A DNA stretch of 64,000 nt from an uncultured Thermotogae bacterium (lineage in GTDB: Bacteria > Bipolaricaulota > Bipolaricaulia > CAYUCE01): contig CAYUCE010000002.1 of assembly GCA_964443275.1 (NCBI GenBank), positions 358 to 64,357 of the forward strand. Reading direction: 5' to 3'. The notes beneath the pieces are model-generated. The model did no database searches and was not told the origin of the DNA. It saw only the letters and a program-made list of their open reading frames with translations. This document shows, one piece after another, positions 18,114 through 55,992 of this stretch (its first letter is position 1; every line of letters starts with the position of its first letter). The position numbers were made by a program, and so were the translations under genes.

Positions 18114-21100
18114 ATGCTTAAAACTATAGACCGATACATCTTAAAAGAATTGACTTTCCCTTTCTTTGTAGCTGTGGGAGGATTTATCATTTTTATAACC
18201 CTTAATTTAATCTTGCAGCTATCTGATTTTATGATAGATAGAAGCATCTCCCTTCTGGTCATGGTTAAGCTGCTTTTTTATAAACTGCCCGAATTGTTGG
18301 TGCTTTCCCTTCCGGTAGCCGTTTTATTTTCGGTCTTTTTGGCACTGGGGCGTTTGGTACACGACCGGGAGATAGTGGCCATGCAATCGGCAGGTTTTTC
18401 ATGTAAGCGAATAGTGGTGCCCATACTTATAATCGGCCTTTCAGTGGGATTTTTCGATCTTTTTCTGAATGATCGAGTTGCCCCCTGGGGTAACCATCAA
18501 TATCAGATGCTAATTCGTCAAATAATCTATAGAGGAGAAGCCCCAAGCATAAGGGATAATACATTCTTCAAAGGGGCAGAGAACCGCTTCTTTTACGTAA
18601 GCCACTACGATTCCCAGAAGAAAATTATGGAAAACATCCTGATTTATGACAAGACCGAAGGATTCGAGTTAGAGGAGTTATCAGGTACCTATCCCAAGGT
18701 AATAACTGCAAAAAAGGCGGTGTGGAGAGGCACCACCTGGCACCTTCAAGATGGGGTTATTCACAAATATGATGACAACGGCGATCTGGTCTATAAAGCT
18801 CAGTTTGAAACCATGAAAATAGAGATCGGGAGGGATTTACAAAATCTGCTCACTCAGGAGCGGACCCCCCAGGGAATGAGCCTTTCGGAGTTGGGAGAGA
18901 AGATAAATACCATGCGCCAAAGCGGTTTAAATTACGACAGCTTAGTAGTAGAATATCATTCCAAGATATCAATTCCATTTACGGCTTTTATTTTTGCCTT
19001 ATTCGGGGCTCCCTTAAGCCTTATGTTCGGAAAGCGAAGCAGAGGAGTGGGGATAGTGATCGCTTTACTTCTGGTGGGAACCTTCCAAGGGATACTGCTT
19101 TGGTCACAGACCCTGGGAAGGAGGGGGATCATAAACCCCGTATTGAGCGCCTGGATCCCTAACCTGATATTTGGACTGGTGGGCATTGTATTATTTCTTA
19201 TGATGGATAAGGTCCATATAGACAACATCTGGCAAAGGATAAAAAGAACTATCACTTTAGTGGTCATTTTTCTTATATTATCTATCGGCTTTTCGAACTA
19301 CGCGTGTGCCGAGGAGAAGAGTGAATTTATCCCCCCTATAGATCTTCAAGCAGATTCTATAACCATCTCTCAAAATGAGAGGGAAGTTGAAGGGGCTGGA
19401 CACGTAAATATAACTTACGGCCAAAATCTCATCCAGGCCGACCGAATAACCATGTCCGAAGTCAAAAAAGAGGTTTGGTATATAAAGGCAGAAGGAAATG
19501 TCAGTTTTAAAAACGAAGATTTTACTACCCAAGCTGACCGAATGGAATCCATCTTGGAGTTAAAGGAAGACGGGAACTTAACTTCAAAAGAAATAACTCT
19601 ATCCGACTTTACCGCCGATCTACGCAAAAAAACCAAAACTTCAGAGTTTAAAGTTACCGGCCAGCAAGCAAAGTTTGCAATCGATGAACAAATCAGGCGG
19701 GTAGAAATTAGGGGCGGGGCAAGTTTCCAGTTAGAAAACGTCCACATATCAGCCGACCGAATCATTATCGGCAAGGATGAAAATGGTCAAAAGGAAGCAA
19801 AAAATAACCAAGTTAAAGAAGCGGATTTATGGAAATTAACGGCGGCTGGAAACGTTTTACTTAAAGAAAGGGAAAGGACTACCCGGGCCGGGCAGCTTAC
19901 TACCCACTTTAGATGGCTCAAGGACCAGGAAATAAAGATTTTGGCTTATGAGCTGGCCAATTTTGAGGGAAAATCTTCTTTTATAAATTCCAACCAACAA
20001 GAGCAAACTATACGTTACCAAGGTGAGAAAGCCCGGCTTTCCTACGATAAAAAAGGGGGACTTGAATTAATCGACGTAGGAATAGGGGATTTCACTACCT
20101 GCATAGATTGTGCTTCCTGTATCGAGAAGGAGGCATATTCTATGAAAGCCAATCGGGTACTCATTTACTCCGATTATCTGTTGGTGGCTTTTGATATAAC
20201 CACCCGAATTTTCGGTCTCCCTATTTTCTGGTACCCCATGTACCTGGCGCCCTTACAAGAGACCAGGGAAAGCCCGCTCTTTCCTGAATTTGGAAGAAGT
20301 GAAACAAGGGGATGGTTTGCCAACTGGAAGTTTCCCTTTTTCTTAACCGATGAAAGGCGAACCTACGGCTATTTGCTTGTTGACTACTTTAACCGCTTCA
20401 ACGAGCTGGGTACCGGAGTGGAGCTACATTATACGGTGGGAGAACATGCGGGTAAAATTCATGCCTACCGGCTGGCTGGAAGAAGGGGCGAATACTTGGA
20501 TTTATACGCAACTTATGGTTTGCCAATCACCGAGCACATAAATCTTAATCTGAGAGCCGATTTGAGAGCCGGTTTGTATGAGGAATTAACCAATCGCAAA
20601 CTTCAATCCTACCTGGAATTGATCGGAAGTTACGACCAATGGAGTTGGAATTTCAAACTTTCCAGAGCCCACCATACAGAAGACCCGGAAAGTGAGGAAG
20701 AAAACTATCAAATATTGGAGAGGGTACCCGAAATCATGGTAAAGAAAAACCCAACCTCCGATAACCTATTTCGCTATTCCTACGGGATCAATTGGGGAAA
20801 GTATAGGGAAAAAGACTTTACCCGCCCGGATTTTTTAACCGCCAGCCGCTTTTACGGGTGGTTAGACCTCGATCTAAAACAAATTTCTCTTGGTGAGGAC
20901 CTAATTAAGTTCAACTTACCCTCTATGATTAGATTCTCACTTTACGGAAAAGACAGGCCCCGTTACGTCTTGGGGACATTTCCCACCCTGACTTTGAACC
21001 CTTTACAGAACCTCACGGTAAGAGCAGATTACAAGTTTCAGGCATCGGTTGGGGACACCCCTTTTGAATTCGATAAGTTAACCAAAAAGAACAAGACCTT

Positions 21101-21680
21101 ACTTAACCTCGTGGCTAACGGGGATTGGCTGCGAGTTGATTTACATTCTGGTTTTGATTTTAAAGAAGAACAGTTTGACCCGGTCAAACTCTCCCTATCT
21201 ACCAAATTATTGTTTAACAATTTAATCACCGCCTTTCAGTACGACCTAAATGAGGGCCGGCTGATAGAGGTGGGAATAACCAATTCAATTAACTTAGGTA
21301 ATTTTGCCCTTCAGGCAAACACCGGATACTCATTTGCGGATCAAAAATTCGAAGATTTAGTGATTAAATCCAAGATCGGAAAAGCGTTTGATATAGGATT
21401 GATCTATGACTTAAATCGAGGTTACTTGACCAAGACTAACATGGAAATTGGGTTTAATATGGGTGAGGACTGGAGTATATCGTTAAACGGTGAGTACGAT
21501 TTTGCCCATAGAGAATGGGATAAATTTCAGTACGGTCTGGTAAGAAAGTTCTGCAACTGCTGGCAAGTAGGTATCTTTGCAGATATGGATCGTATATGGC
21601 TCACAGCCGAGATAAGCGCTTTCCCCACGGCTAAAGTTAAATATTCACCTACTGACGAAAGACTATCTTTCGGTGAGTAA
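18114..21680 (+). CDS. LptF/LptG-family permease fused in one 1188-aa ORF to an LptD/OstA-like protein (OstA-N repeats plus C-terminal barrel-like region)
   Basis: Residues 1-370 start with LKTIDRYILKEL and have six TM helices plus a periplasmic insert, the LptF/G hallmark. A seventh hydrophobic helix follows and resembles a signal peptide (KRTITLVVIFLILSIGFSNYACA). After it come OstA-like repeats (ADSITISQNEREVEGAGHVNITYG...). The C-terminal about 550 aa is Tyr/Gly-rich, with FGLPIFWYPMYLAP and a CNCWQVGIF motif resembling the LptD C-terminal Cys pair. There is no stop codon between the two parts. Confidence 0.55.
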   Translation: MLKTIDRYILKELTFPFFVAVGGFIIFITLNLILQLSDFMIDRSISLLVMVKLLFYKLPELLVLSLPVAVLFSVFLALGRLVHDREIVAMQSAGFSCKRIVVPILIIGLSVGFFDLFLNDRVAPWGNHQYQMLIRQIIYRGEAPSIRDNTFFKGAENRFFYVSHYDSQKKIMENILIYDKTEGFELEELSGTYPKVITAKKAVWRGTTWHLQDGVIHKYDDNGDLVYKAQFETMKIEIGRDLQNLLTQERTPQGMSLSELGEKINTMRQSGLNYDSLVVEYHSKISIPFTAFIFALFGAPLSLMFGKRSRGVGIVIALLLVGTFQGILLWSQTLGRRGIINPVLSAWIPNLIFGLVGIVLFLMMDKVHIDNIWQRIKRTITLVVIFLILSIGFSNYACAEEKSEFIPPIDLQADSITISQNEREVEGAGHVNITYGQNLIQADRITMSEVKKEVWYIKAEGNVSFKNEDFTTQADRMESILELKEDGNLTSKEITLSDFTADLRKKTKTSEFKVTGQQAKFAIDEQIRRVEIRGGASFQLENVHISADRIIIGKDENGQKEAKNNQVKEADLWKLTAAGNVLLKERERTTRAGQLTTHFRWLKDQEIKILAYELANFEGKSSFINSNQQEQTIRYQGEKARLSYDKKGGLELIDVGIGDFTTCIDCASCIEKEAYSMKANRVLIYSDYLLVAFDITTRIFGLPIFWYPMYLAPLQETRESPLFPEFGRSETRGWFANWKFPFFLTDERRTYGYLLVDYFNRFNELGTGVELHYTVGEHAGKIHAYRLAGRRGEYLDLYATYGLPITEHINLNLRADLRAGLYEELTNRKLQSYLELIGSYDQWSWNFKLSRAHHTEDPESEEENYQILERVPEIMVKKNPTSDNLFRYSYGINWGKYREKDFTRPDFLTASRFYGWLDLDLKQISLGEDLIKFNLPSMIRFSLYGKDRPRYVLGTFPTLTLNPLQNLTVRADYKFQASVGDTPFEFDKLTKKNKTLLNLVANGDWLRVDLHSGFDFKEEQFDPVKLSLSTKLLFNNLITAFQYDLNEGRLIEVGITNSINLGNFALQANTGYSFADQKFEDLVIKSKIGKAFDIGLIYDLNRGYLTKTNMEIGFNMGEDWSISLNGEYDFAHREWDKFQYGLVRKFCNCWQVGIFADMDRIWLTAEISAFPTAKVKYSPTDERLSFGE

Positions 21681-21754: not shown

Positions 21755-22312
21755 GTGACCAAAACTATGAAATATCGGGAAGAATCCATGGTAGAGTGGA
21801 GTCTGGCTGACACCCTTACCCTGTCTCGATTATTAATGGGGCCGGTAATAGTGGCCTTAAGTTATTGGGGCAAAGATGCCTATATCGTAGTGGTAATTTT
21901 GAGTCTTTCAGGGGCATTTACAGATATATTGGATGGAATGGCTGCCCGGCGGTGGTTAAAGAACGGGGAAAGCTATCTTGGTCAATATGATTTGGAAATT
22001 GATACCTTGTTTATAATGAGCATACTGGCTTATCTATCTTTTTCGCACATTGTGATGCCCCAATTTGTCGGCTTTGGGTGGATAATTCTATGTGCACTGG
22101 TCCTGATCTTTTATAACAGAAGGCGCAAAGTTCTACTATTCTTTGAGATTCCAGCCATCTGCGGAGCGATTATCTGCGCTGGCTTGTACGATTTCCAAAT
22201 TTTTCAAAAGATATTGTTAGTGATTGCAGCCGGGGTTATCCTCAATTTCAAAAGAATTTGGCATCTGATTACTGAGGATTTCCCCCGTTCTTTCAGCAGA
22301 GTAAGGGAATGA
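21755..22312 (+). CDS. CDP-alcohol phosphatidyltransferase family protein
   Basis: DILDGMAARRW...G...D...D fits the D-G-x2-A-R...G...D...D motif in a multi-TM protein. The start may be the ATG at 21788. Confidence 0.5.
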   Translation: MTKTMKYREESMVEWSLADTLTLSRLLMGPVIVALSYWGKDAYIVVVILSLSGAFTDILDGMAARRWLKNGESYLGQYDLEIDTLFIMSILAYLSFSHIVMPQFVGFGWIILCALVLIFYNRRRKVLLFFEIPAICGAIICAGLYDFQIFQKILLVIAAGVILNFKRIWHLITEDFPRSFSRVRE

Positions 22313-30245: not shown

Positions 30246-31604
30246 TTATAGTTTATATCTAACCGTATACCTAATAGTTGACTCCTCATCTGGCTCCACT
30301 TCCACCGTAAAACCTATTCTTTGGGCATCCAATTTCTCAAAGGTGGGATAGGAATGTAAAATCTCCCAGCTTCCCCTTAAATTCTCAATCACTTTGACCG
30401 TGACCTCTTCCTCCTTATGGCTTCTTAGAGTTATCTGATAGGATTCGATGTAAGTTTCCTCATCAACCTTCTGATAGTCAGTTCTCTTTCTTTCACCTAC
30501 AATATCAAAGGCGGCGCCTAAAGTAAGGTTGACCTTTTCATCGGTAGGAGTATGTGATATCCGATCCTCACCAATGAACCTGAGTCCGTCTTCATCCTGT
30601 TGATAAAACTTGACCGTGCCCGCCGGTAAGGGCTTTCCCAGTCCGTTGGATTCAGAGTTGGTAAAGTTTAGGGAAACTTGTACCCCATCTTCAACTTGTC
30701 CTTGATAGGTATATACCTTTTCTACTTTAACTCCGGAGGCGGTGATGAAGGATAGCTGTCTTTGTTCACCATCTTTTAAGCTTACCTTTCGATTCAAGGA
30801 ATATCGATGATATTCAAAAAGTCTTTGTGATTCAAATCCAGCTTCTGCTTCCGGAGCCATAGCTTTAAGGAACGCCGTCCCCCGATTACTTTCCGCTCGA
30901 TGCAGCTCGCCAGCAACCAGTTCTAGGAGTGCGTTTTGGAAAGTCTTCCCGCCTTGGTTGGCTACAGAAATCCAACTGGTAAGATCAGACCTTTGAGGGC
31001 CGGTGAGAACAATTGAGTAATAAGCATTCCAATCAAGCCCTTCAGTCAAATAATTGATCCTGATCTTATATGCTCCCTCTTTTTCCCCATCTGCGATCTT
31101 CCACAATAGATACGGCTCAGGGGCAAAATCTTCCGGGAGGCCGGGAAAACTTAACTCCACCGGGTCTTTGATTAACTCCACCTTTCCCGATTGATCTTTC
31201 AAAATTATTCCTCCAGAGGTGCCAAGAAGGATCCCCTTATAAGTTTTGTATCCCATGCTCCCCTGAGCAATAACTTCAATCTGTTTACCCACAAAACTTG
31301 CCAAGAGATTCTCCTGGGTGACCGGCTTGAAGTGATAGCTTTGTTCGAGTACGGAAAGTTGACCTGGGCCCTCCAAAGTTTTTATCTGTAGAGAGGTAGG
31401 CATAATCCGGCGAGGGATATCTTCTATTTTCACCTCTTGAGTACCTTTTTCAACTTCCAAGAGCCGCACCTCCGATACGGAGGCCAAATTCTGTTGATAG
31501 ATAGCTAAAATTGTTTGGTCCGCTTCCTCCTGATTGAGCCCCTGTAAAGAGGTAAATCCCAATAATACAGCTATCAAAACAACCAGCGTAAATACCTTCT
31601 TCAT
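30246..31604 (-). CDS. Secreted DUF4139-like protein (MuiA-like family)
   Basis: Signal peptide, then TEGLDWNAYYSIVL, which resembles the conserved DUF4139 core as remembered. Length is 452 aa. Confidence 0.4.
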   Translation of the reverse strand: MKKVFTLVVLIAVLLGFTSLQGLNQEEADQTILAIYQQNLASVSEVRLLEVEKGTQEVKIEDIPRRIMPTSLQIKTLEGPGQLSVLEQSYHFKPVTQENLLASFVGKQIEVIAQGSMGYKTYKGILLGTSGGIILKDQSGKVELIKDPVELSFPGLPEDFAPEPYLLWKIADGEKEGAYKIRINYLTEGLDWNAYYSIVLTGPQRSDLTSWISVANQGGKTFQNALLELVAGELHRAESNRGTAFLKAMAPEAEAGFESQRLFEYHRYSLNRKVSLKDGEQRQLSFITASGVKVEKVYTYQGQVEDGVQVSLNFTNSESNGLGKPLPAGTVKFYQQDEDGLRFIGEDRISHTPTDEKVNLTLGAAFDIVGERKRTDYQKVDEETYIESYQITLRSHKEEEVTVKVIENLRGSWEILHSYPTFEKLDAQRIGFTVEVEPDEESTIRYTVRYKL

Positions 31605-31675: not shown

Positions 31676-32173
31676 TTAACTACTTTTCACGTCCTGGCCC
31701 ATCTTATTCAACTGCGACCTGGCTAGGCCAATCAAATCCAAATCTTGGGTGCCTTCTGCCCGGTTCCATGAATAGATAGTGACCATATTATTTACCCTAA
31801 ATACCAGCTCTCTGGGCTTTCCTTGCCGAGCGGGTTTAATGTAGGCTTGGTCGGCTAAGTCTTCGTCAGGAAGTGCGTTTTCCCCTGCTTCCTCCAATTT
31901 CTGATTGTAGAACGAACTTGCCTCTTTTACATCATCGAACTTAAGTATGGACTGAGCCAAAGTTGAATTATCAGTTTTTTCAAATATAGCGGTAATTCCT
32001 ATCAATGGCTCTTCCGGGGAGCCTTCCGCTACCAGCTCCCATCCTGGGCCCAGTTCTTGAGGTTTAAATAAATAAGCGGCAAGTTCACTTTTTGGGTTAT
32101 CTTCTGCCACTACTAATACTACCATACAAATAAACATAAACAGCGCTACTAACAACAGTACCCAACGTCTCAC
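31676..32173 (-). CDS. Secreted or membrane-anchored hypothetical protein
   Basis: 165 aa with an N-terminal hydrophobic helix. Confidence 0.3.
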   Translation of the reverse strand: MRRWVLLLVALFMFICMVVLVVAEDNPKSELAAYLFKPQELGPGWELVAEGSPEEPLIGITAIFEKTDNSTLAQSILKFDDVKEASSFYNQKLEEAGENALPDEDLADQAYIKPARQGKPRELVFRVNNMVTIYSWNRAEGTQDLDLIGLARSQLNKMGQDVKSS

Positions 32174-38175: not shown

Positions 38176-39750
38176 ATGGCAAAACGTCTAATCACATTTT
38201 TTGTGCTAATTAGTTTACTTGCATTCGCAAATTCTGTTGGTACGCCTCAGTCAGAAAAATATGGCGGAACGGTTCACTTCGGAATTTCCACAACACTTCC
38301 GTCGTTGAACCCCCTTAAAGGAGTAGCACCCTCAACTCGAGGTGGGACTCGGACTATTCTCACAGTTTATCGAGGCTTACTTGGATTTAATTCTGACAGT
38401 GAGTTAGTCCCTGAATTGGCAGAAAGTTACGAAACCTCAGATAATAAAACTTGGGGTTTTCGTCTGCGTGAAAACGCGAAATTTCATAATGGTGAACCGG
38501 TAATAGCCGAAGATGTTAAATTTACATTTGACTGGATTCGTGACCCTGATAATGGTGCTTTTGGCTATCAGTACTTAAAGAGAATTAAAAACACCACAAT
38601 AGTTGATAAGCATACCATAGAAATTGAACTTAAATCTCCAGATGCAACTTTTGCTTCACTGCTAACTCAAGCTTGCGCGGTTATTGTTTCAAAAGACTGG
38701 TGGCAAGATCCCGAAACTAATCCAGACATTGAAATGATGGGTGCAGGACCTTTTAAGTTTGAAGATTTAGTCGAAGGAGTAAAAGTTGTGACCAAGCGAT
38801 TTGACGATTTCTACAAAGAGGGGTTCCCGTACCTAGATAAGATGGTTGTTCACTTCTATCCCGATGAAGAAAGTAGAATTAATGCCTTGCTGGCTGGTGA
38901 TTTGGATATTATAGGTTATCCGCCTTGGAGATACATGAAGAAGATAGATGCTGACCCAAATTATGAATTGGAACTTGCCTCAGGCGTTTTAATGACCGTA
39001 GCTTTCAATCTAACGGTGGAACCTTGGACTAACATAAAAGTTCGAGAGGCCATCAGTTACGCTCTAAAACGCGATGACTACGTAGAAGGTGTTTTCTATG
39101 GCTATGCGGAGCCAATACGGGGCCCTTTGACACCTCCTGACATGAAACAGTGGTATCATGAGGGGCTAGCTGAGTTCTTTGAATACAATCCAGAAAAGGC
39201 AAAGAGACTACTTGCTGAGGCAGGTTATCCTGATGGCTTTAAGACAACAATCTTCTCAAACTATACATATGGGATGTACAAAAGAACCGCAGAAATTCTG
39301 CAAAGACAATTAAAAGAAGTGGGAATTGAAGGGGAACTTGAGCTAGTCGATTGGCCCGAGCAGGTAGAGAGATCCTGGAGCGGTAACTTTACAGGTCTAA
39401 AAGTAATAGGTACACTTTTCTTTTATCCAGATCCTGACTCTTATGTGACCACAATAGGTATTTCTGCAAAGCCTACGTTCGCATCATATGGTATAGAATC
39501 TGGAGATGTCAAAGTTCCGCTAATGAAACAAGCCCTAGAGGAAGCTCGAACTGCCGTAACAACAAAAAAAAGAGACGAATGGTATCGTGCATTCGAAGGA
39601 CTTTTCCTTGCTAAGTTTCTACAGATACCTCTCGTTGGTAGATATGATGGGACTGCTCTGAGTAAACGAGTTCAAAATTACGATCCTCCTTGTGGACAAC
39701 TCACCGGCTTTAGTGCTTTTGCACATGATTATATCTGGCTGGAACATTAA
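38176..39750 (+). CDS. ABC transporter substrate-binding protein, family 5 (peptide/nickel/opine type)
   Basis: Signal peptide, then an SBP_bac_5-like body. Length is 524 aa. Confidence 0.85.
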   Translation: MAKRLITFFVLISLLAFANSVGTPQSEKYGGTVHFGISTTLPSLNPLKGVAPSTRGGTRTILTVYRGLLGFNSDSELVPELAESYETSDNKTWGFRLRENAKFHNGEPVIAEDVKFTFDWIRDPDNGAFGYQYLKRIKNTTIVDKHTIEIELKSPDATFASLLTQACAVIVSKDWWQDPETNPDIEMMGAGPFKFEDLVEGVKVVTKRFDDFYKEGFPYLDKMVVHFYPDEESRINALLAGDLDIIGYPPWRYMKKIDADPNYELELASGVLMTVAFNLTVEPWTNIKVREAISYALKRDDYVEGVFYGYAEPIRGPLTPPDMKQWYHEGLAEFFEYNPEKAKRLLAEAGYPDGFKTTIFSNYTYGMYKRTAEILQRQLKEVGIEGELELVDWPEQVERSWSGNFTGLKVIGTLFFYPDPDSYVTTIGISAKPTFASYGIESGDVKVPLMKQALEEARTAVTTKKRDEWYRAFEGLFLAKFLQIPLVGRYDGTALSKRVQNYDPPCGQLTGFSAFAHDYIWLEH

Positions 39751-39837
39751 CAGGATTTCAAAAGGAAATATGCTTTAACACATGTGTAAACTTTGTACTT
39801 GATATTTTCGGAGCGGAAACTAGAAATAAATACACAT

Positions 39838-39870
39838 ATTCACAGGAGCTTTTCAAAAGCTCCTGTGAAT
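39838..39870. promoter_or_regulatory. Perfect 33-bp palindrome ATTCACAGGAGCTTTT-c-AAAAGCTCCTGTGAAT (intercistronic hairpin or operator)
   Basis: Two 16-nt perfectly complementary arms lie about 90 nt after the substrate-binding protein stop, inside a 430-nt gap before the permease gene. There is no downstream T-run. Confidence 0.35.
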
Positions 39871-40181
39871 ATGTCCTATCGCAAAATTCTTACTAGTGTG
39901 CGAGGCAGACTACTTCCACATTTACACATCGGACCAAAGGTTATTGTAAATACCATCTATACTATGCGGTATTTGACAAGATTACGTTGCCCATTGTTTC
40001 TGTATTCTTTTCTTAAAAGAAATAGATTTAAGAAATGCCAACCTCTGGTATTTTCACCTTTGGAAGGTCCGCTTTCCCAAGAGAAGTTAGCTTTTAAGCC
40101 ACGACTTGTAAGTAAAAAGGAAACCTGCAAAATTCGCTTAAAAATATAGCATTTACATTCGCAAAATGAGGCTGTGAAGCA

Positions 40182-41147
40182 ATGTCGATATATGCATTCA
40201 TAGTTAGACGTTTATTTGTAAGCTTCGGTACAATACTTATCATTACTGTTGTGGTATTTTCCTTTTTACACCTACTTCCTGGTGATCCCGCTCAGATGAT
40301 CCTCGGTGGTGGTACAGAAGGAGGCACTATAAATGAAGAGCAACTACAACGTATCAGACAGGAATTAAATTTAGATAAACCACTGCATATTCAATATTTT
40401 CTCTTTCTAAAAAACGCTCTCCAAGGTAATTTGGGGAAATCCTATTACAACGATCAGCCTGTTTCCAATGTGTTATTAATACGCTTCCAGAGATCATTCG
40501 AATTGGTCATATTGAGTTTTCTACTCGCGGTACCAGTTGGTATATCTCTTGGCGTATTAGCAGGCATACATAGTGGAAGATACCTTAGCACGATTATTGT
40601 TCTACTCTCTGTTTTAGGCATATCTCTTCCTGTTTACGTACTGGGTCCGCTTTTTATAAAAATATTTTCCTTGCAATTAAGTTGGCTGCCAACATCAGGA
40701 TATGTTCTCATAAGTGAGAGTACTGTGAAGCATATACAATCTCTTGTACTTCCGGTAACCACACTGTCTTTGGGCCTAATAGCAATGATTAGTAGAATAC
40801 AGCGATCAAGTCTTTTAGAAGTTCTCCACTCCGAATATATAACCACCGCAAGATCAAAAGGGCTTAATGAAGGGATAGTAATGACCAAACATGCGCTTCG
40901 GAATGCTGTAATCCCCGTTATCTCAATAGGTAGTGTACAATTAGCCCGTTTAGTAGGAGGGACTGTGGTTTTAGAAACCGTTTTTACCTACCCCGGATTA
41001 GGATTGCTACTGAAGGAATCTATTATGAGACGTGATCTACCTGTTATCCTAGGTATTGCACTTCTGGTTGGAATTACTTTTAGCATCATTAACTTACTCG
41101 TTGACTTGGCTTATTGTTTCTTGGATCCCAGGATTAGGTATGATTAA
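40182..41147 (+). CDS. ABC transporter permease (DppB/OppB-like), set 1
   Basis: 321 aa with six TM helices and the EAA-like loop region of the BPD_transp_1 family. Confidence 0.85.
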   Translation: MSIYAFIVRRLFVSFGTILIITVVVFSFLHLLPGDPAQMILGGGTEGGTINEEQLQRIRQELNLDKPLHIQYFLFLKNALQGNLGKSYYNDQPVSNVLLIRFQRSFELVILSFLLAVPVGISLGVLAGIHSGRYLSTIIVLLSVLGISLPVYVLGPLFIKIFSLQLSWLPTSGYVLISESTVKHIQSLVLPVTTLSLGLIAMISRIQRSSLLEVLHSEYITTARSKGLNEGIVMTKHALRNAVIPVISIGSVQLARLVGGTVVLETVFTYPGLGLLLKESIMRRDLPVILGIALLVGITFSIINLLVDLAYCFLDPRIRYD

Positions 41148-41997
41148 TCTTAAACAGGAATTATGCAATAAAATGAAACTTTTACGTGATTTCCGTGTTA
41201 CTATAAGCTCGATAATTATCCTCGCCTTGCTACTGTTATCTCTCTTGGCACCAGTTCTTCCAGTAAGAGATCCCTTTGAGATGAATTTCTCGAATATGTT
41301 AGAGGGACGAAGCAGCAGTTTTTTACTAGGTACAGACGAATACGGTCGTGATTTGTTAAGCAGGATACTATACGGCACAAGAGTAACCCTTTCAGTAGCT
41401 TTTGCAGCTACCACTATTGCGGCAATTCTTGGTTGCTTACTTGGTATATGTTCAGCATATTTTAGAGGATGGTCAGAAACATTCCTTATGCGAATTACAG
41501 AAGTTCTGGTATCATTTCCTCCCGTTTTACTGGCAATGATAGTGGTTGGACTTTGGGGACCGGGGATGAGAAATTTAATTCTAAGTATAGGAGTAATTCA
41601 TTCTCCTATGTTTGCCCGACTGAGCTACGGAGTAACCAAATCAGAGCGAGAGAGAGAGTACGTTAAAGCCAGCAAATCATTGGGAGCATCAAATACTTGG
41701 ATAATTGCTAAAGTGTTGTTACCCAACATCGCAGCACCTATCATTGTGCAATTTGCAGTCAACTTTGCTTGGGCAGCTCTTCTTGCTGGAGGCCTGAGTT
41801 TCCTTGGATTAGGGATCATTCCTCCCCGGCCTTCGCTTGGAAATATTCTTGCAGGTGCTCGCAGTTATATGGCCTTGAACTGGTCATATTTTCTCTGGCC
41901 TGCTGTTGTACTTGGCACTCTAATAACGGCTGTGAATATTTTAAGTGAAGGGTTGCGCGAAGCGCTGGATCCAAAGCAGCGGGGGTCAATTGTCTGA
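41140..41997 (+). CDS. ABC transporter permease (DppC/OppC-like), set 1
   Basis: Track ORF is 41056..41997. The likely start is the ATG at 41140, which overlaps the upstream stop. It has an OppC-type N-terminal domain and TM helices. Confidence 0.8.
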   Translation: MINLKQELCNKMKLLRDFRVTISSIIILALLLLSLLAPVLPVRDPFEMNFSNMLEGRSSSFLLGTDEYGRDLLSRILYGTRVTLSVAFAATTIAAILGCLLGICSAYFRGWSETFLMRITEVLVSFPPVLLAMIVVGLWGPGMRNLILSIGVIHSPMFARLSYGVTKSEREREYVKASKSLGASNTWIIAKVLLPNIAAPIIVQFAVNFAWAALLAGGLSFLGLGIIPPRPSLGNILAGARSYMALNWSYFLWPAVVLGTLITAVNILSEGLREALDPKQRGSIV

Positions 41998-42090
41998 TAA
42001 ATGCATAAAGGTAGATGCGTGGTATTTATAGATGTAGTGGGGAAAGCAGGCGAAGATTAGATATGAACGTAAAGATAAAAGGAGGTAGAC

Positions 42091-42771
42091 ATGCAAAATC
42101 TCAAGGAAAAACGAGGAGATCAAACCTACGAGACATATCAATCGATTTCAGTAGATTACATAAAAGGTGGATATCTTGATGGCACAATCGGCTTTGGAGC
42201 AAAGCCAGCAATTATTGTTATTGATTATCAAAAGGCGTTTACTACTTTTGAAGCGACTCTAGGCACAAGTGACTTAATCCAACAAGGAGTTGAAAATACA
42301 GCCATTCTTCTAAAAGAAGCTAGGAAAAAAGGAGTGCAGATTTTCTTTACCAATGTTGCCTGGAGAGAAGATAGGAAAGATTTTGGGATGTGGAAGGGTA
42401 AAATGACACAATGTCTAAAAGAGGCTACTTTGGGTACTTGGGGCGTAGAAGTAGATGACAGACTAAAAATGGAAGACGGCGATATTTTCTTCTACAAAAA
42501 GTGGCCCTCAGCTTTCCATGGCACGCCTCTCAGCACTTATTTAACCACAAAGGGAATTGATACTTTAATCGTAACTGGCTGCACCACCTCCGGATGTGTT
42601 AGGGGAACAATCTATGATTCTTTCTCTAGTGGTTTTAGAACCATCGTTCCTTATGGCTGCGTAGGTGACATAATTCAATCTGCACATGAGCAAAATCTTG
42701 CAGATATCCATAAGAGATATGCCGATGTTCTCCCATTAGAAAAGGTTATTACCTATATACGTGAGCTTTAG
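42091..42771 (+). CDS. Isochorismatase-family cysteine hydrolase (N-carbamoylsarcosine amidase / RutB-like)
   Basis: Catalytic-triad context IIVIDYQKAF ... LIVTGCTTSGCVRGTIYD. Length is 226 aa. Confidence 0.75.
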   Translation: MQNLKEKRGDQTYETYQSISVDYIKGGYLDGTIGFGAKPAIIVIDYQKAFTTFEATLGTSDLIQQGVENTAILLKEARKKGVQIFFTNVAWREDRKDFGMWKGKMTQCLKEATLGTWGVEVDDRLKMEDGDIFFYKKWPSAFHGTPLSTYLTTKGIDTLIVTGCTTSGCVRGTIYDSFSSGFRTIVPYGCVGDIIQSAHEQNLADIHKRYADVLPLEKVITYIREL

Positions 42772-42957
42772 TAATTTCTAGCAATTTCTCTGTAAAGATG
42801 TTTAAATCATGTCTTTGAATCCATGATTATAGTAAGAATATATAGAAGTTGAGAAGTGAGACAATAAGTTTTCGTAAAGGAAAGTCATGTATGATTATAC
42901 TTTTGCAGAATTTTTGCTTCCAACTGAGAATTTTAAGATCTAGCGAAAGGAATATTT

Positions 42958-44421
42958 ATGTATGGAGAAAGAAACTTCTTATCCTCTGAGCGGCCCTATC
43001 TCCGTGTTCTCTCAGAAAAACAGTTAGAGAATCTCCATTTTGCTTCTCTGCGCGTGCTGGAGAGAACGGGGATGATTTTTAACTCTTCTCAAGCTGTTGA
43101 CCTGCTTCTTTCGGCCGGTGGCCGAAGAGTTGAAGGAAATAGAATTTCGATTCCTTCTCATTTAATTGATAAATCTCTCAAGAGCGCGCCTAAGCAAATA
43201 AGGATTAGTGATCGAGAGGGTGATTCCATGATGCTCCTATCGGGCCACAATGTCTATTACGGTACTGGGTCCGATCTTCCTAGTGTCATTGATCCATATT
43301 CCGGTGAGAAGCGTGCCTCATTAGCAAAAGATGTGGGTAACTTCGCCAGGGTCTGTGACTATTTACCAAACATTGATTTTGTGATGTCTATGGCACTGGC
43401 TTCCGATCACCCTGTGGAAGTAGCCGATTTATATCATTTTTTACAGATGGTTAGCAATACGACGCTGCCCATACTCTTTACTGCTTCTAATCGTGAAAGT
43501 TTAGAATACATTTACCAAATGTGTCTGGCCATAAGGGGTAGCGAACAAGCATTGACAAAAGAGCCCTTTATAATTCACTATGCCGAACCTAGCAGTCCAC
43601 TACAGCATAGTAAAGATGCTGTTGACAAACTTCTTTTCTGCGCGAAGCACGGAATTCCGGTCACTTATCCATCCGGAACTTCTCTCGGAGTTACCGCCCC
43701 AGTCACTATCGCCGGTGCTATGGTTATGGCAAACGCAGAGTTTCTTGGTGGACTCGTTTTAAGTCAACTAACACAGGAAGGGGCTCCCATCATTTACGGT
43801 GGTGGGAATTCAGCGATGGATATGCGCACCATGGCGTATCTCTATGCAGCCCCCGAAAATTGGCTTAATGGAATGATAGTCCGGGAACTATCCTCCTACT
43901 ATAGGTTACCATGTTTTGGGGAAGGTGGCTGCGGTGATGCTAAGACCTTCGACCAACAAGCAAGTAGTGAGGCCACAAGCACATTGTTAGTTACTAGTCT
44001 GATTGGTACAAACCTTATACATGATGTGGGATACATCGAGTCAGGCAAGACAGGTTCCTATGGAATGCTTTTGCTATCTGATGACGTTATTGGACAAATT
44101 AAACGTTTTCTCCGTGGGGTCGAGGTATCGAATGAAACCCTAGCAGTAGAAGTATTAGACAGAGTTGGACCAGGAGGTAATTTTCTCACCGATCAACATA
44201 CTCTAAACCATTTTAAGGATTCAATTTATAATCCAAATTATTTTGATCGCCAAACCTTTAGTCAGTGGGTAAAACAAGGCAAAAAAGCACTTGGTCAAGT
44301 ATTGAACGAGAAAGCTAGATGGATTTTGGAAAATCATGAACCTAAACCTTTACCAGAAGGAGTTAAGCAGAAGATAAATACCATCATTCAAAAAGCCGAG
44401 GAACAAAGGGAAAGAACGTAA
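42958..44421 (+). CDS. MttB-superfamily (trimethylamine/quaternary-amine:corrinoid methyltransferase-like) protein, non-pyrrolysine
   Basis: The N-terminus LSEKQLENLHFASLRVLERTGMIF matches the family start. The core GIPVTYPSGTSLGVTAPVTIAGAMVMANAEFLGGLVLSQLT...YGGGNS...DAK...VSNETLAVEVLDRVGPGGNFL aligns along MttB/MtgB. A Cys/Gly sits at the position of the UAG/Pyl residue of true MttB. No corrinoid protein or RamA-like activase is in the window. Confidence 0.7.
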   Translation: MYGERNFLSSERPYLRVLSEKQLENLHFASLRVLERTGMIFNSSQAVDLLLSAGGRRVEGNRISIPSHLIDKSLKSAPKQIRISDREGDSMMLLSGHNVYYGTGSDLPSVIDPYSGEKRASLAKDVGNFARVCDYLPNIDFVMSMALASDHPVEVADLYHFLQMVSNTTLPILFTASNRESLEYIYQMCLAIRGSEQALTKEPFIIHYAEPSSPLQHSKDAVDKLLFCAKHGIPVTYPSGTSLGVTAPVTIAGAMVMANAEFLGGLVLSQLTQEGAPIIYGGGNSAMDMRTMAYLYAAPENWLNGMIVRELSSYYRLPCFGEGGCGDAKTFDQQASSEATSTLLVTSLIGTNLIHDVGYIESGKTGSYGMLLLSDDVIGQIKRFLRGVEVSNETLAVEVLDRVGPGGNFLTDQHTLNHFKDSIYNPNYFDRQTFSQWVKQGKKALGQVLNEKARWILENHEPKPLPEGVKQKINTIIQKAEEQRERT

Positions 44422-44467
44422 TAACATTCTTGTATGATTTTGTGAACAACTAAAAGGAGGATATAAA

Positions 44468-45451
44468 TTGGAAAATGCTTTTGATTTTGTGAAACTTCAT
44501 GCAGGTTGGGATGAGTGTATATTGATTTTTGGGGAGCAATTGCCCAAAGGTGAAGAGCTTAACATTAGCTTATCTCTATTAAAGAAACCAAGCATTGGTG
44601 GAACGGAGGTTGGAATCCTCTATCCTCCTAACGATTCAGGGGATATCAGGGTTAAGATAGTTGATGCTACCAGCAATAGCTATATACGAATGTGTGGAGG
44701 ACTCACACAATCTTTAGGAAAAGCCATTGTTGAAACCAATATCGGTGAAAAGCTAGGGATAACGATACCTGATGGAACGCAAGAAGTCCTATTAGAAACA
44801 GATGCCGGGCTTATTCCCATTGAAATCGAGGTTCAAAATCACATCACCCGGAAGGTAGTCACTAAAATGGATTCTTACCTTACTGATTGTTATGAACGTG
44901 GAGTTGAGTTGGAAAAACTAGATGGAATGTCCGTGGTAGATGTCGGTATTAATGAGGAAGAAAAGGAGTTTTTGGTTATCGATATTGAAGAGCTATCGAG
45001 ACGGTTCTCTAAAGTTAATTTTTTTAAGAGGGAAGAGGCTGCTCTGAATATCTTAGAAGAGGTTTACCGCAAGTTTCTCAGTTCACGCGAAATGTCTTTG
45101 AAATATTTATATGGTGCCCTATATCAGCTTAAAGAGTCAGGGGCAGAAAAGAGGATTCAAACTGTATTCCGCTTCTTTCCATGGGATTATTCACCAGGGG
45201 ATAATTTGGAGTTCGCTTGCGGTACTGGGACAATAGCCATTGGTATCGCCATGTATGAGCGCGGACAGATAGATTTTTCTGATGGAACTGAAAACTTATT
45301 TTTAACCGTTGGTGGAAAACACCTTCCCTCAGGAACAAGAGCGAAAACTCACTTACAACTGGAGGGTACGAAGCAGGGGATAACAAGTGCCCGATTTAGC
45401 CATGACCGTATTGAAATAGTAGCCAGTGGCAAGATCTACATTACTGCATGA
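44468..45451 (+). CDS. DapF-fold PLP-independent amino-acid racemase/epimerase family protein
   Basis: N-terminal FDFVKLHAGWDECILIF matches DapF FSKMHGLGNDFMVV. Two catalytic-Cys motifs are present: RMCGGLTQS and EFACGTGTIAIGIA. The second matches the SPCGTGTSA motif of proline racemase. Confidence 0.5.
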   Translation: MENAFDFVKLHAGWDECILIFGEQLPKGEELNISLSLLKKPSIGGTEVGILYPPNDSGDIRVKIVDATSNSYIRMCGGLTQSLGKAIVETNIGEKLGITIPDGTQEVLLETDAGLIPIEIEVQNHITRKVVTKMDSYLTDCYERGVELEKLDGMSVVDVGINEEEKEFLVIDIEELSRRFSKVNFFKREEAALNILEEVYRKFLSSREMSLKYLYGALYQLKESGAEKRIQTVFRFFPWDYSPGDNLEFACGTGTIAIGIAMYERGQIDFSDGTENLFLTVGGKHLPSGTRAKTHLQLEGTKQGITSARFSHDRIEIVASGKIYITA

Positions 45452-45577
45452 TTTTTCCCTCTAGACGCTGCTAAGACTGAGTTAGTAGCATGGCTATTAA
45501 CAAATCCGAAATAAATATTAGTAGAAAGAAACGATGCTCAGTAACTGCTAGAGCGATAGCAAAGTGTAGGTGATCAA

Positions 45578-46504
45578 ATGGGGATCACCCAATATTTCAT
45601 AAGACGTTTACTGTTAATCATTCCAGTAATACTGGTGGTTTCAGTAGTTAATTTCTCGATGCTCCATTTGGCCCCAGGTGATCCTGTACGGGTAATGGTT
45701 AACCCTCGAATGGGTGAGGAGGCCATTCAACAAAAACGCAAAGAGTTGGGATTGGACAAACCACTCTTTATTCAATATTTGAACTTTATGAAGAGGATAA
45801 TTACAGGCAACCTGGGACGCTCAATCTACACCAGGGAGCGTATCGAAGCTATGATACTGCGGCGTCTATCAAACACATTAATCTTGGGAATCACTGCTCT
45901 CACTCTGGCTTTTCTTATTGCAATACCTTTTGGTACTTTGGCTGCGAAATACCGTGGAAGGTTACTAGATTACGCTTCTATGTTTGCAGCCCTTGTTGGC
46001 CTTTCTATGCCCCAATTTTGGCTGGGGCTAGTACTAATGCTGGTGTTTGCAATAAAACTTGGGTGGTTCCCAGTGGCTGGTTACGGAGACTTAAGACATC
46101 TTGTGCTTCCCGCTATCACCCTTGCTGCATATTTTACAGGTCTTATGACCCGATTGAACCGTTCTAGCTTGCTGGAAGTGATGGGAAAAGACTACATGTT
46201 TACCGCCCGAGCCAAGGGACTTTCTGAGGTAACTGTGCTTTTCAAACACGGACTGCGTAACTCTTTGACTACCGTAATTTCCTTCTTGGGATTACAGGTT
46301 GGCTGGCTAGTAGGGGGAGCGGTAATGGTGGAATTCGTTTTTAATAGGCCGGGGTTGGGAAGATTGATCGTACAATCCCTTTATCGGCGGGATTATCCGG
46401 TAATACAGATTCTTTTACTTATTCTGGTTACCTCAGTTATATTGGGAAATTTACTAGCCGATCTATGCTATGCAACGGTCAACCCAAAAATTAGATATAA
46501 ATAG
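45578..46504 (+). CDS. ABC transporter permease (DppB/OppB-like), set 2
   Basis: 308 aa paralog of the set 1 permease, with six TM helices. Confidence 0.85.
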   Translation: MGITQYFIRRLLLIIPVILVVSVVNFSMLHLAPGDPVRVMVNPRMGEEAIQQKRKELGLDKPLFIQYLNFMKRIITGNLGRSIYTRERIEAMILRRLSNTLILGITALTLAFLIAIPFGTLAAKYRGRLLDYASMFAALVGLSMPQFWLGLVLMLVFAIKLGWFPVAGYGDLRHLVLPAITLAAYFTGLMTRLNRSSLLEVMGKDYMFTARAKGLSEVTVLFKHGLRNSLTTVISFLGLQVGWLVGGAVMVEFVFNRPGLGRLIVQSLYRRDYPVIQILLLILVTSVILGNLLADLCYATVNPKIRYK

Positions 46505-46515
46505 GGTCAGTTGCC

Positions 46516-47334
46516 ATGCGAGTACTTAAACATAAGCAGATAATTTTTGGAGGCGGGGTAATACTGGTCTTTTGCACGATAGCGATACTCGCTCCTTATA
46601 TTATCCCTTATCACTATTGGGAGCAGGATTTAATGGAGTCCCTACACGAGCCTAGTGGAGAGCACTTCTTTGGTACGGATAATTTCGGGCGTGATGTCTT
46701 TAGCCGAGTTGTTTATGGAACACGAATATCACTTATTTCCGCGCTGGGAGCTGCAGGAGTTGCTTCTATAGTGGGATTAACTCTGGGGTTGTTGGCCGGT
46801 TATTTAGGAGGAGCGGTGGATCGAGTTGTCCAAACGGCAATTGACGTATCCTGGTCGTTCCCCACAGTACTATTGGCTATTTTGATTGCATCAGTAGCAA
46901 GCCCGGGATTGAGCTCCACTATTATCGCCATTGCAGCCGTGTATTGGGCACAATATGCGCGGGTAATCCGGGGAGAGGTTTTATCAGTAAGGGAGGAAGA
47001 GTACGTACACGCCGCCAAGAGTATCGGCTGTACGGAGGTCAGGGTAATGGCTCGCCATGTGTTTCCCAACGTGGTCCCCCCGATGATAGTGATGATAAGT
47101 ATCACCATGGGATACGCTATATTACTAGAAGCAATGCTAAGTTTTTTAGGTGTCGGAGTTCAACCTCCCACTCCTAGTTGGGGAATCGTTCTCTCCGAAG
47201 GGCGTGATTTTCTGACCAGAGCCCCCTGGATAACCCTCTTTCCAGGCATGATCATTTCCCTAGCCGTTCTAGCTTTCAATTTCCTTGGTGATGGACTGAG
47301 GGATTACCTCGATCCATATATGAAGCGGATATGA
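46516..47334 (+). CDS. ABC transporter permease (DppC/OppC-like), set 2
   Basis: 272 aa with an OppC-type TM arrangement. Confidence 0.85.
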   Translation: MRVLKHKQIIFGGGVILVFCTIAILAPYIIPYHYWEQDLMESLHEPSGEHFFGTDNFGRDVFSRVVYGTRISLISALGAAGVASIVGLTLGLLAGYLGGAVDRVVQTAIDVSWSFPTVLLAILIASVASPGLSSTIIAIAAVYWAQYARVIRGEVLSVREEEYVHAAKSIGCTEVRVMARHVFPNVVPPMIVMISITMGYAILLEAMLSFLGVGVQPPTPSWGIVLSEGRDFLTRAPWITLFPGMIISLAVLAFNFLGDGLRDYLDPYMKRI

Positions 47335-51017: not shown

Positions 51018-51728
51018 CTAACCGGCAGTGGGAATTTTAAAACTATCCTCTGAAATTTTCCCATCCTCCAGATATATGACCCGTTTTACCCTTTCTAAAA
51101 GTCGGGTATCATGGGTAGCAAATAGAAAGGTCACCTGTTGGTTTTCATTTAATTTTCGCATCAAATCGATCAAATTAAGGCTGGCCTCAGTATCCAGATT
51201 GGCAGTTGGTTCATCGGCCAATACTAAAGATGGGCCAGCGGCTACCGCTCTAGCTACAGCCACCCGTTGCTGTTGACCCCCGGAGAGCTGATTGGGACGG
51301 CGATCTGCTAATTGGTCCACATCCAGGGCTTCGAGAACGGACATGGCCCTATCTTTGCGCTTGGATTTTGCCTGCCCTTGAAGTTCCATGACAAACTCGG
51401 CATTCTCCAAGGCGGTGAGTACTGGAAGCAGATTATATGCCTGAAATACAAAACCCAACTCGTACAAGCGAAATTCCGCCAGTTGACCTTTAGACAGTTG
51501 GTTTAGCTCTTTTCCGTTTACCCAGATCTTTCCCCCCGTAGGCTGAAGCAAACCGCCAACAATATGAAGCAGGGTGGATTTACCCGATCCGGACGGTCCG
51601 GCCACGCTCGCATACTCCCCTTTTTCTATCCTTAGATCAATCCCCCGTAAGGCCGGAGTCTCTACCGAATCCACCTTGTAGGTCATCTCTAACTTCTCAC
51701 AACGTACAATTTTTTTTCGATCTTCCAT
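51018..51728 (-). CDS. ABC transporter ATP-binding protein (LolD/MacB-type)
   Basis: Walker A GPSGSGKST, signature LSGGQQQRVA and Walker B LVLADEPT. Length is 236 aa. Confidence 0.9.
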   Translation of the reverse strand: MEDRKKIVRCEKLEMTYKVDSVETPALRGIDLRIEKGEYASVAGPSGSGKSTLLHIVGGLLQPTGGKIWVNGKELNQLSKGQLAEFRLYELGFVFQAYNLLPVLTALENAEFVMELQGQAKSKRKDRAMSVLEALDVDQLADRRPNQLSGGQQQRVAVARAVAAGPSLVLADEPTANLDTEASLNLIDLMRKLNENQQVTFLFATHDTRLLERVKRVIYLEDGKISEDSFKIPTAG

Positions 51729-51928
51729 ATTAACTCCTTATTTATCAGTTAATGGTCTATTTCTAAACTTCACATTTAATTTTAAGTTAGACTTTGTAGA
51801 GGAAGGCTTCAGCCTTCCATGTTAATTGATTTCGATACAAAAAAACATCATGGAACTCTAAAACTTTGCGCTACCCACAAACAACCGGAATATATTCTCT
51901 CCAATTGCAATTTTTTTTGTAGCGGAAA

Positions 51929-52006
51929 CTCTACTATGCTGCTTCGCAGCTCTCTGCTTCGCAAGCTTCGCAGAAGCGTAGAAGAGGTCGTAGAAGCGAA
52001 GAAGAG
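51929..52006. repeat. Left copy of an inverted repeat of about 79 bp (cttcgc/gcgaag-rich) flanking the Lol-like cassette
   Basis: ctctactatgctgcttcgcagctctctgcttcgcaagcttcgcagaagcgtagaagaggtcgtagaagcgaagaagag equals the reverse complement of 56138-56216, apart from one indel and a few mismatches. Confidence 0.6.
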
Positions 52007-52048
52007 CCTTTAGGTTTTCATCTTATCTGGGATATCCTCCATATTTGT

Positions 52049-55315: not shown

Positions 55316-55365
55316 TTGTTATTCCATCCTTTCATGCTCCCGTTATTCACGGACTTCTCTTTCTA

Positions 55366-55983: not shown

Positions 55984-55992
55984 TTTGCATAT

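Follow-up and report, generated by a model that had tools for sequence, protein, structure and literature searches.

Can a single gene encode both the inner membrane and the outer membrane component of a lipid export machine and, if so, does its product stay in one piece? The question is raised by an open reading frame (ORF) in a 64,000-nt stretch of DNA from an uncultured Thermotogae bacterium; this whole stretch is called the window below. An earlier note, made from the sequence of the window, had described the ORF as a fusion between an LptF/G-type inner membrane permease and an LptD/OstA-like outer membrane protein, and had considered both a genuine fusion and a lost stop codon or sequencing error. 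We found that the fusion is genuine and widely conserved, that its C-terminal half is a complete LptD homolog, and that the segment between the two halves has the sequence features of a Sec signal peptide. The hypothesis that we favor, with a probability of roughly 0.55, is that the ORF encodes a precursor that would be cut by signal peptidase I into a seven-helix permease and a free outer membrane LptD.

The ORF listing contains one continuous frame that starts with ATG and encodes 1188 aa plus the stop codon; as the earlier note stated, it has no stop between the halves. The GC content is 0.42-0.43 across the gene region, which is ordinary for the window. Amino acid numbers refer to the 1188-aa fused protein, the main features of which are listed here.

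18114..21680, + strand: whole fused ORF, a putative LptF/G-LptD precursor (ORF, Pfam, AlphaFold2 model with mean pLDDT 86.8, fold matches to LptD and LptF/G)
18114..19211, + strand: LptF/G-type ABC permease module, aa 1-366, with six transmembrane (TM) helices and a periplasmic beta-jellyroll at aa ~150-237
18348..18401, + strand: coupling-helix region GRLVHDREIVAMQSAGFS, aa 79-96, with D84 and E86 invariant
19206..19247, + strand: short cytoplasmic linker DKVHIDNIWQRIKR, aa 365-378, with the basic n-region at its end (conservation of the K377/R378 columns)
19248..19301, + strand: h-region and start of the c-region of the predicted internal signal peptide ("TM7"), TITLVVIFLILSIGFSNY, aa 379-396
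19302..19310, + strand: A-C-A, aa 397-399, behind which signal peptidase I is predicted to cut (19310/19311, A399|E400)
19311..20099, + strand: flexible N-terminus of the LptD-like part (aa 400-407) and the extended OstA/LptA-type beta-jellyroll that follows it (aa ~408-662)
20100..20111, + strand: motif FTTCxxC, where the jellyroll ends, with the near-invariant cysteines C663 and C666
20211..20318, + strand: hinge of the LptD-like part with the first strands of the barrel, FGLPIFWYPMYLAPLQETRESPLFPEFGRSETRGWF, aa 700-735 (conserved prolines, alignment to LptD)
20286..21677, + strand: large C-terminal beta-barrel, aa ~725-1188, for which DSSP gives about 26-30 strand segments
21549..21578, + strand: C-terminal motif FCNCWQVGIF, in which the invariant C1149 probably pairs with C663/C666 in a disulfide

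When 5.8 billion proteins were searched, the identical NCBI protein was recovered together with over 60 others that are 970-1309 aa long and 22-60% identical. The N-terminal LptF/G domain is common to these relatives, and those with names belong to Candidatus Bipolaricaulota or Acetothermia. The alignment of 66 sequences, that of the window and 65 relatives from independent assemblies, is unbroken over the junction and contains invariant residues in both halves. Its most distant member, a 1102-aa protein annotated as a YjgP/YjgQ permease in the cultured Pseudothermotoga elfii and P. lettingae, is also fused, and so is the closest relative, which comes from another data source and is 60% identical. 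Furthermore, a scan of GTDB (one genome per species) with two motifs from the LptD-like hinge identified 42 loci, labelled Bipolaricaulota, Acetothermia, Fraserbacteria or "uncultured Thermotogae," to which two loci from Ca. Bipolaricaulis sibiricus were added. The two halves share one reading frame in all 41 of these 44 loci that have upstream sequence, the other three ending at a contig edge. The scan patterns were derived from fused proteins only, and the lack of split cases among the 44 loci is a statement about that subfamily. The ORF is a genuine, vertically conserved gene of the Bipolaricaulota, Fraserbacteria and Thermotogota group, and of the two alternatives in the earlier note it is the fusion that was borne out.

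The N-terminal half is the six-TM LptF/G module that had been proposed. The Pfam model LptF_LptG (PF03739) is covered in its entirety by aa 7-362 (E 1.3e-93; 314.3 bits against a cut-off of 27.9), and the periplasmic beta-jellyroll lies between TM3 and TM4, which is the arrangement typical of the LptF/LptG family. Likewise, a profile of the 66-sequence family matches the solved LptG and LptF proteins with E-values of 6e-18 and weaker. The NCBIfam equivalog models for LptF and LptG rank at the top, below their cut-offs (201.1 against 230 bits and 188.7 against 240 bits, respectively), and the scores point to an undifferentiated LptF/G type, assignable neither as LptF nor as LptG. In the coupling helix, D84, E86, A89 and G94 are each conserved in 66/66 sequences and R80 in 65/66; we take E86 to correspond to the glutamate that contacts LptB in LptF and LptG of E. 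coli.

The C-terminal ~790 residues are a complete, divergent LptD homolog with both the jellyroll and the barrel. The family profile that matches LptF and LptG also matches six distinct LptD sequences (E 3.6e-5 to 5e-4), and four of these six alignments are collinear, pairing profile positions ~400-420 to 1025 with LptD residues ~45 to ~740. In the AlphaFold2 model calculated on the family alignment, the six long helices come first, together with a beta domain at aa 150-237, and are followed by another helix at aa 369-389. Residues 389-407 are disordered and form the sole segment where pLDDT drops below 50; past them, about 16 long strands (aa 410-661) lead into a very large all-beta region that extends to the C-terminus. 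The structure prediction that the earlier note had called for thus returned six helices, a jellyroll and a barrel. The model has fold matches to LptD and to LptF/G, and the best structural relatives of the barrel are LptD proteins, collinear with the jellyroll. The search for LptD domains with hidden Markov models gave a divided answer: Pfam LptD_N/OstA matches aa 412-556 with 27.5 bits against a gathering cut-off of 20.4, whereas LptD_C has no Pfam match at E <= 1 in the fused protein because the C-terminal half is too divergent from that model. Two further results concern the same region: the NCBIfam LptD model matches the jellyroll only (28 bits against 683), and a C-terminal-only profile built from the locus translations has no match in the PDB at E <= 0.01, reaching LptD at E 0.015.

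The residues that are conserved in this half are those expected of an LptD. In the HMMER alignment to LptD 8h1r, the invariant "TTC" cysteine of the family falls on "TRC" of LptD, the hinge "PVFWlPvYvaPL...sPllP" falls on the proline-containing hinge segment of LptD and, in a weak second segment, the C-terminal "FCdC" falls on "CC." The cysteines C663 and C1149 are present in 66/66 sequences and C666 in 65/66, and the mature part of the short clade has exactly three cysteines, at these positions. The hinge region is equally conserved, with P708, P721 and G727 in 66/66 sequences and P724 and W706 in 65/66. In LptD of E. coli, C173 and C724/C725 form an inter-domain disulfide; we presume that C663/C666 are the counterparts of C173 (in "FTSC") and C1149 that of C724/C725, in which case a disulfide would connect the jellyroll with the barrel. 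The length of the jellyroll differs among the clades: the distance from the mature N-terminus to the TTC cysteine is 126-131 aa in Pseudothermotoga and the B. sibiricus clade, ~140 aa in a middle clade and 213-330 aa in the clade of the window (263 aa in the window itself), where it looks as if an extra LptA-like module had been added.

The architecture itself is already known from Thermotoga, and the gene in the window is an ortholog from the neighboring phylum. The T. maritima protein G4FGC1, a "fusion pABC permease" with LptF/G, LptA and LptD-like domains, was identified by mass spectrometry, with a significant enrichment in the toga fraction. It was described as conserved throughout the Thermotogae, and its proposed role is to deliver lipids of the inner membrane to the toga (Sexton et al., PNAS 2023, PMC10160955). 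The ORF in the window resembles G4FGC1 in that LptF/G, an LptA-like jellyroll and an LptD-like barrel are found in one ORF of a toga-bearing diderm that reportedly lacks lipopolysaccharide (LPS). Orthology holds at the family level by way of the 1102-aa Pseudothermotoga protein (P0072), which aligns end to end with E 2.9e-66 and has the same junction and cysteine motifs; G4FGC1 was compared by its description. The proteins differ in that identity to the Thermotogota member is ~22% and the jellyroll of the window is about twice as long (263 aa versus 126 aa). The term "signal peptide" has no occurrence in the main text of the Thermotoga study, and an internal signal peptide, cleavage and split relatives are not mentioned there (PMC10160955). 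The Bipolaricaulota are the sister group of the Thermotogae and have the same OmpAlpha/OmpBeta tether (10.1101/2021.05.31.446380), and the first isolate of the phylum was described as Gram-negative with a toga-like outer membrane (10.1101/2025.11.21.689855).

What happens at the junction is central to the fate of the protein. The hydrophobic segment KRTITLVVIFLILSIGFSNYACA spans aa 377-399 (nt 19242-19310), and in 66/66 sequences TM6 is followed first by basic residues, then by a brief hydrophobic run and finally by a small-x-small motif, while the residues otherwise diverge freely. In the n-region, the K377 column has R or K in 65/66 sequences and the R378 column in 42/66. Position -1 of the motif is A in 48 sequences, G in 13, S in 3 and T in 2, so that A, G or S is found in 64/66 against a background of 26% for these three residues together; position -3 is A in 27, G in 22, V in 7, S in 4 and T in 4 and thus small in 64/66. 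Position -2 is highly variable, with a maximum frequency of 0.14, and proline is found at +1 in 1/66. The distance from the last K or R of the n-region to position -1 is 14-31 residues, with a median of 18. These statistics were obtained from a MAFFT alignment that was not tuned for a signal-peptide pattern and, as a control, the same criterion of small residues at the first position and A/G/S at the third was found in only 10 of 961 consecutive well-occupied column triplets; among the 10, the junction triplet has the most variable middle column, most of the others being fixed Gly/Ser motifs. In the structural model, the junction helix has a pLDDT of 55-67 versus 85-97 for TM1-6, and the disordered stretch starts at about the predicted cut site.

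A basic n-region, an h-region, small uncharged residues at -1 and -3 and the near absence of proline at +1 are the hallmarks of Sec signal peptides, and the junction reads as a textbook example with a conserved predicted signal peptidase I site. Such a conserved small-x-small junction appears to be new in relation to the prior description of the family. The earlier note had regarded the segment as a seventh TM helix; a hydrophobic segment is indeed retained, but because the signal-peptidase-type site is conserved it may be cleaved and need not be a permanent tether only. If the junction is cleaved, the mature permease and the LptD are separate proteins.

Further insight into the origin of the junction came from relatives in which the two halves are encoded by separate genes. 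A phmmer search with the LptD-like part only (aa 389-1188) against 1.84 billion representatives yielded 259 proteins at E <= 0.001. Besides fused forms and fragments, these include eight stand-alone clusters of 770-808 aa, aligned over almost the full length of the query with ~25% identity and E-values from 1e-35 to 1e-25. Several of the matches begin near residue 35, behind ordinary N-terminal signal peptides, and the motif "...LEADxLEI..." that follows these peptides is the one found past the junction of the fused forms. Where names are given, the members are hypothetical proteins from metagenome-assembled genomes of Candidatus Bipolaricaulota or Acetothermia. In three assemblies (L046-L048) the genes form an operon that encodes an LptC/LptA-like protein of 252-303 aa, an ABC ATPase of 235-237 aa, an LptF/G protein of 381-382 aa and an LptD-like protein of 776 aa; the operon is located at 7243-12331 in L046 and at 7312-12331 in L048, and is also present in L047. 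Curated models identify the first gene as LptC (40.6 bits against a cut-off of 38) and the second as LptB (240.3 bits against 240 in one locus and 233.5 in the other), and the LptD-like protein just reaches the Pfam LptD_N threshold. The lptF/G gene stops about 20 aa past TM6 and is followed by lptD in a different frame; at one locus the stop and the start overlap by 1 nt (TAATG), and at the other lptD starts with GTG behind a spacer of 2 nt. This lptC-lptB-lptF/G-lptD operon of a sister Bipolaricaulota lineage appears to be new.

The comparison with the split lineage supports the suggestion in the earlier note that the extra helix is a former signal peptide. The signal peptide of the stand-alone protein, "MHYSRRTKAITLSLLLIILTTLLFYPVKPSSGA|TLEAD," aligns with "IKRTITLVVIFLILSIGFSNYACA|EE...DLQAD" of the window, and we conclude from this alignment that the junction segment is either a descendant or the ancestor of a genuine LptD signal peptide. 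The proteins of the split operon are homologous to the two halves of the ORF in the window (37% identity for LptF/G and 25% over the full length of the LptD-like part) and their order is kept, but the split operon has LptC and LptB next to lptF/G-lptD, and such neighbors were not found at the fused loci. Because a split lineage exists, LptF/G can work with six helices, needing no seventh, and LptD can act as a separate, secreted polypeptide. The comparison of orthologs proposed in the earlier note thus gave fused genes in 41/41 informative loci and separate genes for the two halves in one sister lineage only. In rough neighbor-joining (NJ) trees of each half, the split lineage is monophyletic and nested among the fused clades; for this reason it does not make the ORF in the window an artefact. 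The fused forms were monophyletic in 5/100 and 2/100 bootstrap replicates in the trees of the two halves, which suggests secondary fission or repeated fusions, with the caution that the trees are crude and have long branches.

We favor the hypothesis of a cleaved precursor on four grounds: the conserved pattern at the predicted cleavage site, the existence of the split lineage, the enrichment of the Thermotoga protein in the toga and the geometry of the cell envelope. In this model, the six helices of LptF/G would insert into the inner membrane and leave the C-terminus in the cytoplasm, whereupon the signal peptide that belongs to LptD would insert with its N-terminus inside and its C-terminus outside and carry the jellyroll and the barrel across the membrane. 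Signal peptidase I would then cut past the small-x-small site, ACA|EE. The resulting seven-helix permease would stay in the inner membrane, probably as a homodimer, since there is one LptF/G-type gene per locus and a homodimer is reported for Acetonema (PMC13018214), and it may be driven by an LptB-like ATPase, as suggested by the invariant E86 of the coupling helix. The freed LptD-like protein would fold into the toga-like outer membrane with its jellyroll locked to the barrel by the putative disulfide, and the two proteins would together export an amphiphilic lipid, most likely other than LPS, to the outer membrane. With regard to geometry, we estimate from its 126-260 aa that the jellyroll spans roughly 4-9 nm, which falls far short of the ~70-nm periplasm of T. 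maritima.

Several considerations weigh against this hypothesis. The predicted cleavage is read from a pattern in the sequence, and a structurally coherent alternative exists in that an uncleaved helix followed by the jellyroll would resemble LptC. If the halves are separated again, there is no clear reason why the fusion has been kept in dozens of lineages; control of stoichiometry or co-localized insertion are guesses. Lpt partners were not found near the fused genes, the Pfam LptD_C model fails on the C-terminal half, the C-terminal-only profile reaches LptD at just E 0.015, and the NJ trees that show the nesting of the split lineage are crude, their branches being long.

It is possible, if on the unlikely side, that the protein is instead never cleaved, so that the junction is a seventh TM helix that serves as an LptC-like anchor and one chain resides in both membranes. 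The jellyroll would dock on the periplasmic domain of LptF/G and form a covalently continuous lipid slide, at sites of tight contact between the membranes. An uncleaved protein is what the Thermotoga study implies with a fusion permease that moves lipid from the inner membrane to the toga (PMC10160955), and a precedent has been proposed in MlaD of Veillonella, with domains in both membranes (PMC10665443). The continuity of the ORF at every informative locus also suggests that the covalent link matters, and the jellyroll in the clade of the window is lengthened by ~100 aa, as if tuned to a distance. On the other hand, a permanent anchor has no evident reason to keep a small-x-small site with a variable position -2 and a combined h- and c-region down to 14 residues; the junction helix is poorly packed in the model; LptF/G in the split lineage works with six helices while its LptD is free; the jellyroll is just 126-140 aa in most clades against the ~70-nm periplasm of T. 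maritima; and the T. maritima protein is enriched in the toga and not shared with the inner membrane (PMC10160955). If the protein were uncleaved, an ABC exporter would be covalently joined to an outer membrane barrel of the size of LptD, making a lipid bridge out of one chain.

We are more doubtful about a dual output, where cleavage is partial or conditional, or where the LptD part is also produced from an internal start, so that tethered and free forms coexist. Some members of the family have a methionine just past the basic residues (RRMFPF, RRMVHF), the start codon of the split lineage is located at exactly that position, and slow processing by signal peptidase is well documented in viral polyproteins. 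But this methionine is not conserved, the window has no ATG there, and its sole in-frame GTG (V383) lies 19 nt past AGGA, which is a poor spacing. An internal translation start is therefore disfavored, in view of the lack of a conserved methionine and of a good start codon and Shine-Dalgarno sequence in the window.

In the DNA of the junction, the in-frame AGG ATA AAA at 19236-19241 holds a TAA in the +1 frame (GGATAA), and a single-base indel could therefore interconvert fused and split forms. A merger of adjacent lptF/G and lptD genes by a sequencing or assembly error near 19210-19250, through loss of a stop or a shift of frame, would profit from such a stop codon, which one indel could in principle make or delete, and from the 1-nt overlap of stop and start in the sister lineage, but we reject it as highly improbable because the fusion is conserved across independent assemblies: the junction with its basic n-region is in the same frame in 66 proteins and at 41/41 informative loci, the 60% identical relative from separate data is fused as well, and the junction DNA has no long homopolymer run. 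The site at 19210-19215, where the earlier note suspected a lost stop, corresponds to aa 366-367, at which TM6 and the LptF/G module end.

Neither the window nor the DNA up to 8 kb from the 44 fused loci yielded LptB, LptC/A or BamA; no LptE turned up in the window or at the 44 loci either, although no search was aimed at LptE candidates, and LptE has been reported missing in other Terrabacteria (PMC13018214). Among the best 120 matches of a search with LptB, none came from a fused lineage: the matches with at least 59% identity belong to the split lineage, after which identity drops to that of canonical LptB at ~45%, and LptB adjoins the LptF/G gene in the split lineage only. Outside its own lineage, the split-lineage LptB is closest, at ~45% identity, to canonical LptB of LPS-producing phyla. 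A search for LptC/LptA-like proteins in fused lineages gave only four close relatives of the query. Two candidates for LptB were rejected, an ABC ATPase near the fusion gene in locus L034, which is of the DrrA/NodI type, and the sole ABC ATPase of the window, which is LolD-like and located in a Lol/MacB-type operon.

The cargo is probably a lipid other than LPS, since genes for LPS are reported lacking both in Thermotoga and in a closed Bipolaricaulota genome. Specifically, the first closed genome of the phylum, that of Ca. Bipolaricaulis Ran1, was reported to lack LPS genes (PMC6092417), T. maritima was reported to be without LPS synthesis genes and to have a lateral periplasm of ~70 +/- 10 nm and a toga enriched in phosphatidylglycerol and glucosyl lipids (PMC10160955), and no lpx or kds genes were found in the 64-kb window. 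A glycolipid or phospholipid would be a more plausible cargo, and a glycolipid has been proposed for the Lpt system of Borrelia burgdorferi (PMC10353723). The claim in the earlier note that one polypeptide contains both ends of the LPS bridge therefore stands in that both ends are encoded in one ORF, but the LPS part of it is doubtful.

Similarities to other systems are found at several levels. The fused protein shares with the proteobacterial LptB2FGC-LptA-LptDE machine the LptF/G fold, the coupling-helix glutamate, the OstA jellyroll, the large barrel, the hinge prolines and the inter-domain cysteines, and the split sister lineage further resembles that machine in having a recognizable LptC and LptB in one operon. 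The proteobacterial machine differs in that every part has its own gene, LptF and LptG form a heterodimer, the cargo is LPS and LptE plugs the barrel. Borrelia burgdorferi has kept Lpt homologs without LPS, like the group of the window, but in separate genes (PMC10353723). Acetonema longum has a homodimeric LptF/G and an LptD without LptE, also in separate genes, and its LptD is reported to have 16 strands (PMC13018214); the barrel in the window is of LptD size.

A precedent for the predicted processing comes from an unrelated family. In Bradyrhizobium, the cytochrome b/c1 precursor FbcH is cut at an internal signal peptide; as in the ORF of the window, a multi-helix inner membrane protein with its end in the cytoplasm is followed by the signal peptide of a periplasm-facing partner. 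The release of two proteins by signal peptidase was demonstrated experimentally for FbcH and would be the corresponding outcome here.

The fusion gene is surrounded by housekeeping genes. Located upstream are genes for an MscS-type channel, a small multidrug-export-like protein and RNase HII, and located 75 nt downstream is a gene for a membrane protein of the CDP-alcohol phosphatidyltransferase family, which is followed by genes for a helix-turn-helix protein, a periplasmic binding protein, ComEC and LeuRS.

21755..22312, + strand: CDP-alcohol phosphatidyltransferase-family membrane protein, 185 aa (PF01066, 35.7 bits against a cut-off of 22)

In Ca. B. sibiricus, too, the fusion gene is directly followed by a homolog of the phosphatidyltransferase gene, and the same holds for 7/31 informative loci, which represent several clades of the Bipolaricaulota and Fraserbacteria; no such homolog adjoins the Pseudothermotoga fusion gene. 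By its position, this gene hints at a link to phospholipids, a hint too weak to name the cargo, and its membership in the system is uncertain.

A few other features of the window were observed. The Lol/MacB-type operon at 51018-55995 on the minus strand encodes a TetR regulator (55366-55995), an FtsX/MacB permease (54101-55315), a LolA-like protein (53287-54132), a second FtsX permease (52049-53302) and the LolD-like ATPase (51018-51728); it resembles a system for sorting lipoproteins and belongs to an organism whose outer membrane is atypical. An ORF of 888 aa at 56277-58943 (+) has no Pfam match at E <= 1e-4. Another, of 452 aa at 30246-31604 (-), has a sub-threshold match to DUF4139 (23 bits against 31.8) and is adjoined by a 165-aa ORF at 31676-32173 (-) with no match. 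The region at 38176-47334 (+) contains a cluster of peptide/opine-type ABC transporter genes, with SBP_bac_5 and four permeases of the BPD_transp_1 type. Scattered among them are genes for an isochorismatase and, at 42958-44421, a protein of the MttB family (trimethylamine methyltransferase-like), as well as a weak proline-racemase-like ORF; the region may be a catabolic island for quaternary amines or amino acids. Finally, a 221-aa protein of the plasmid pRiA4b ORF-3-like family (PF07929) is encoded at 59512-60177 (+) in a context that otherwise looks chromosomal.

To the known architecture our analysis adds a conserved junction of the signal-peptidase type, the cysteines and hinge of LptD, a jellyroll that is longer in one clade and a sister lineage whose operon is split. 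In a published survey, lptD was scored as never found in the "atypical diderms" (PMC8871954). A full LptD is nevertheless present, hidden in a protein that is annotated merely as an "LptF/LptG family permease," and the presence and absence of outer membrane genes near the Thermotogota, Bipolaricaulota and Fraserbacteria needs to be reread accordingly. The conserved site and the split operon sharpen the question of whether one gene gives rise to two proteins or to one chain that resides in both membranes. Either answer informs how lipid bridges are assembled and how the Lpt system functions without LPS.

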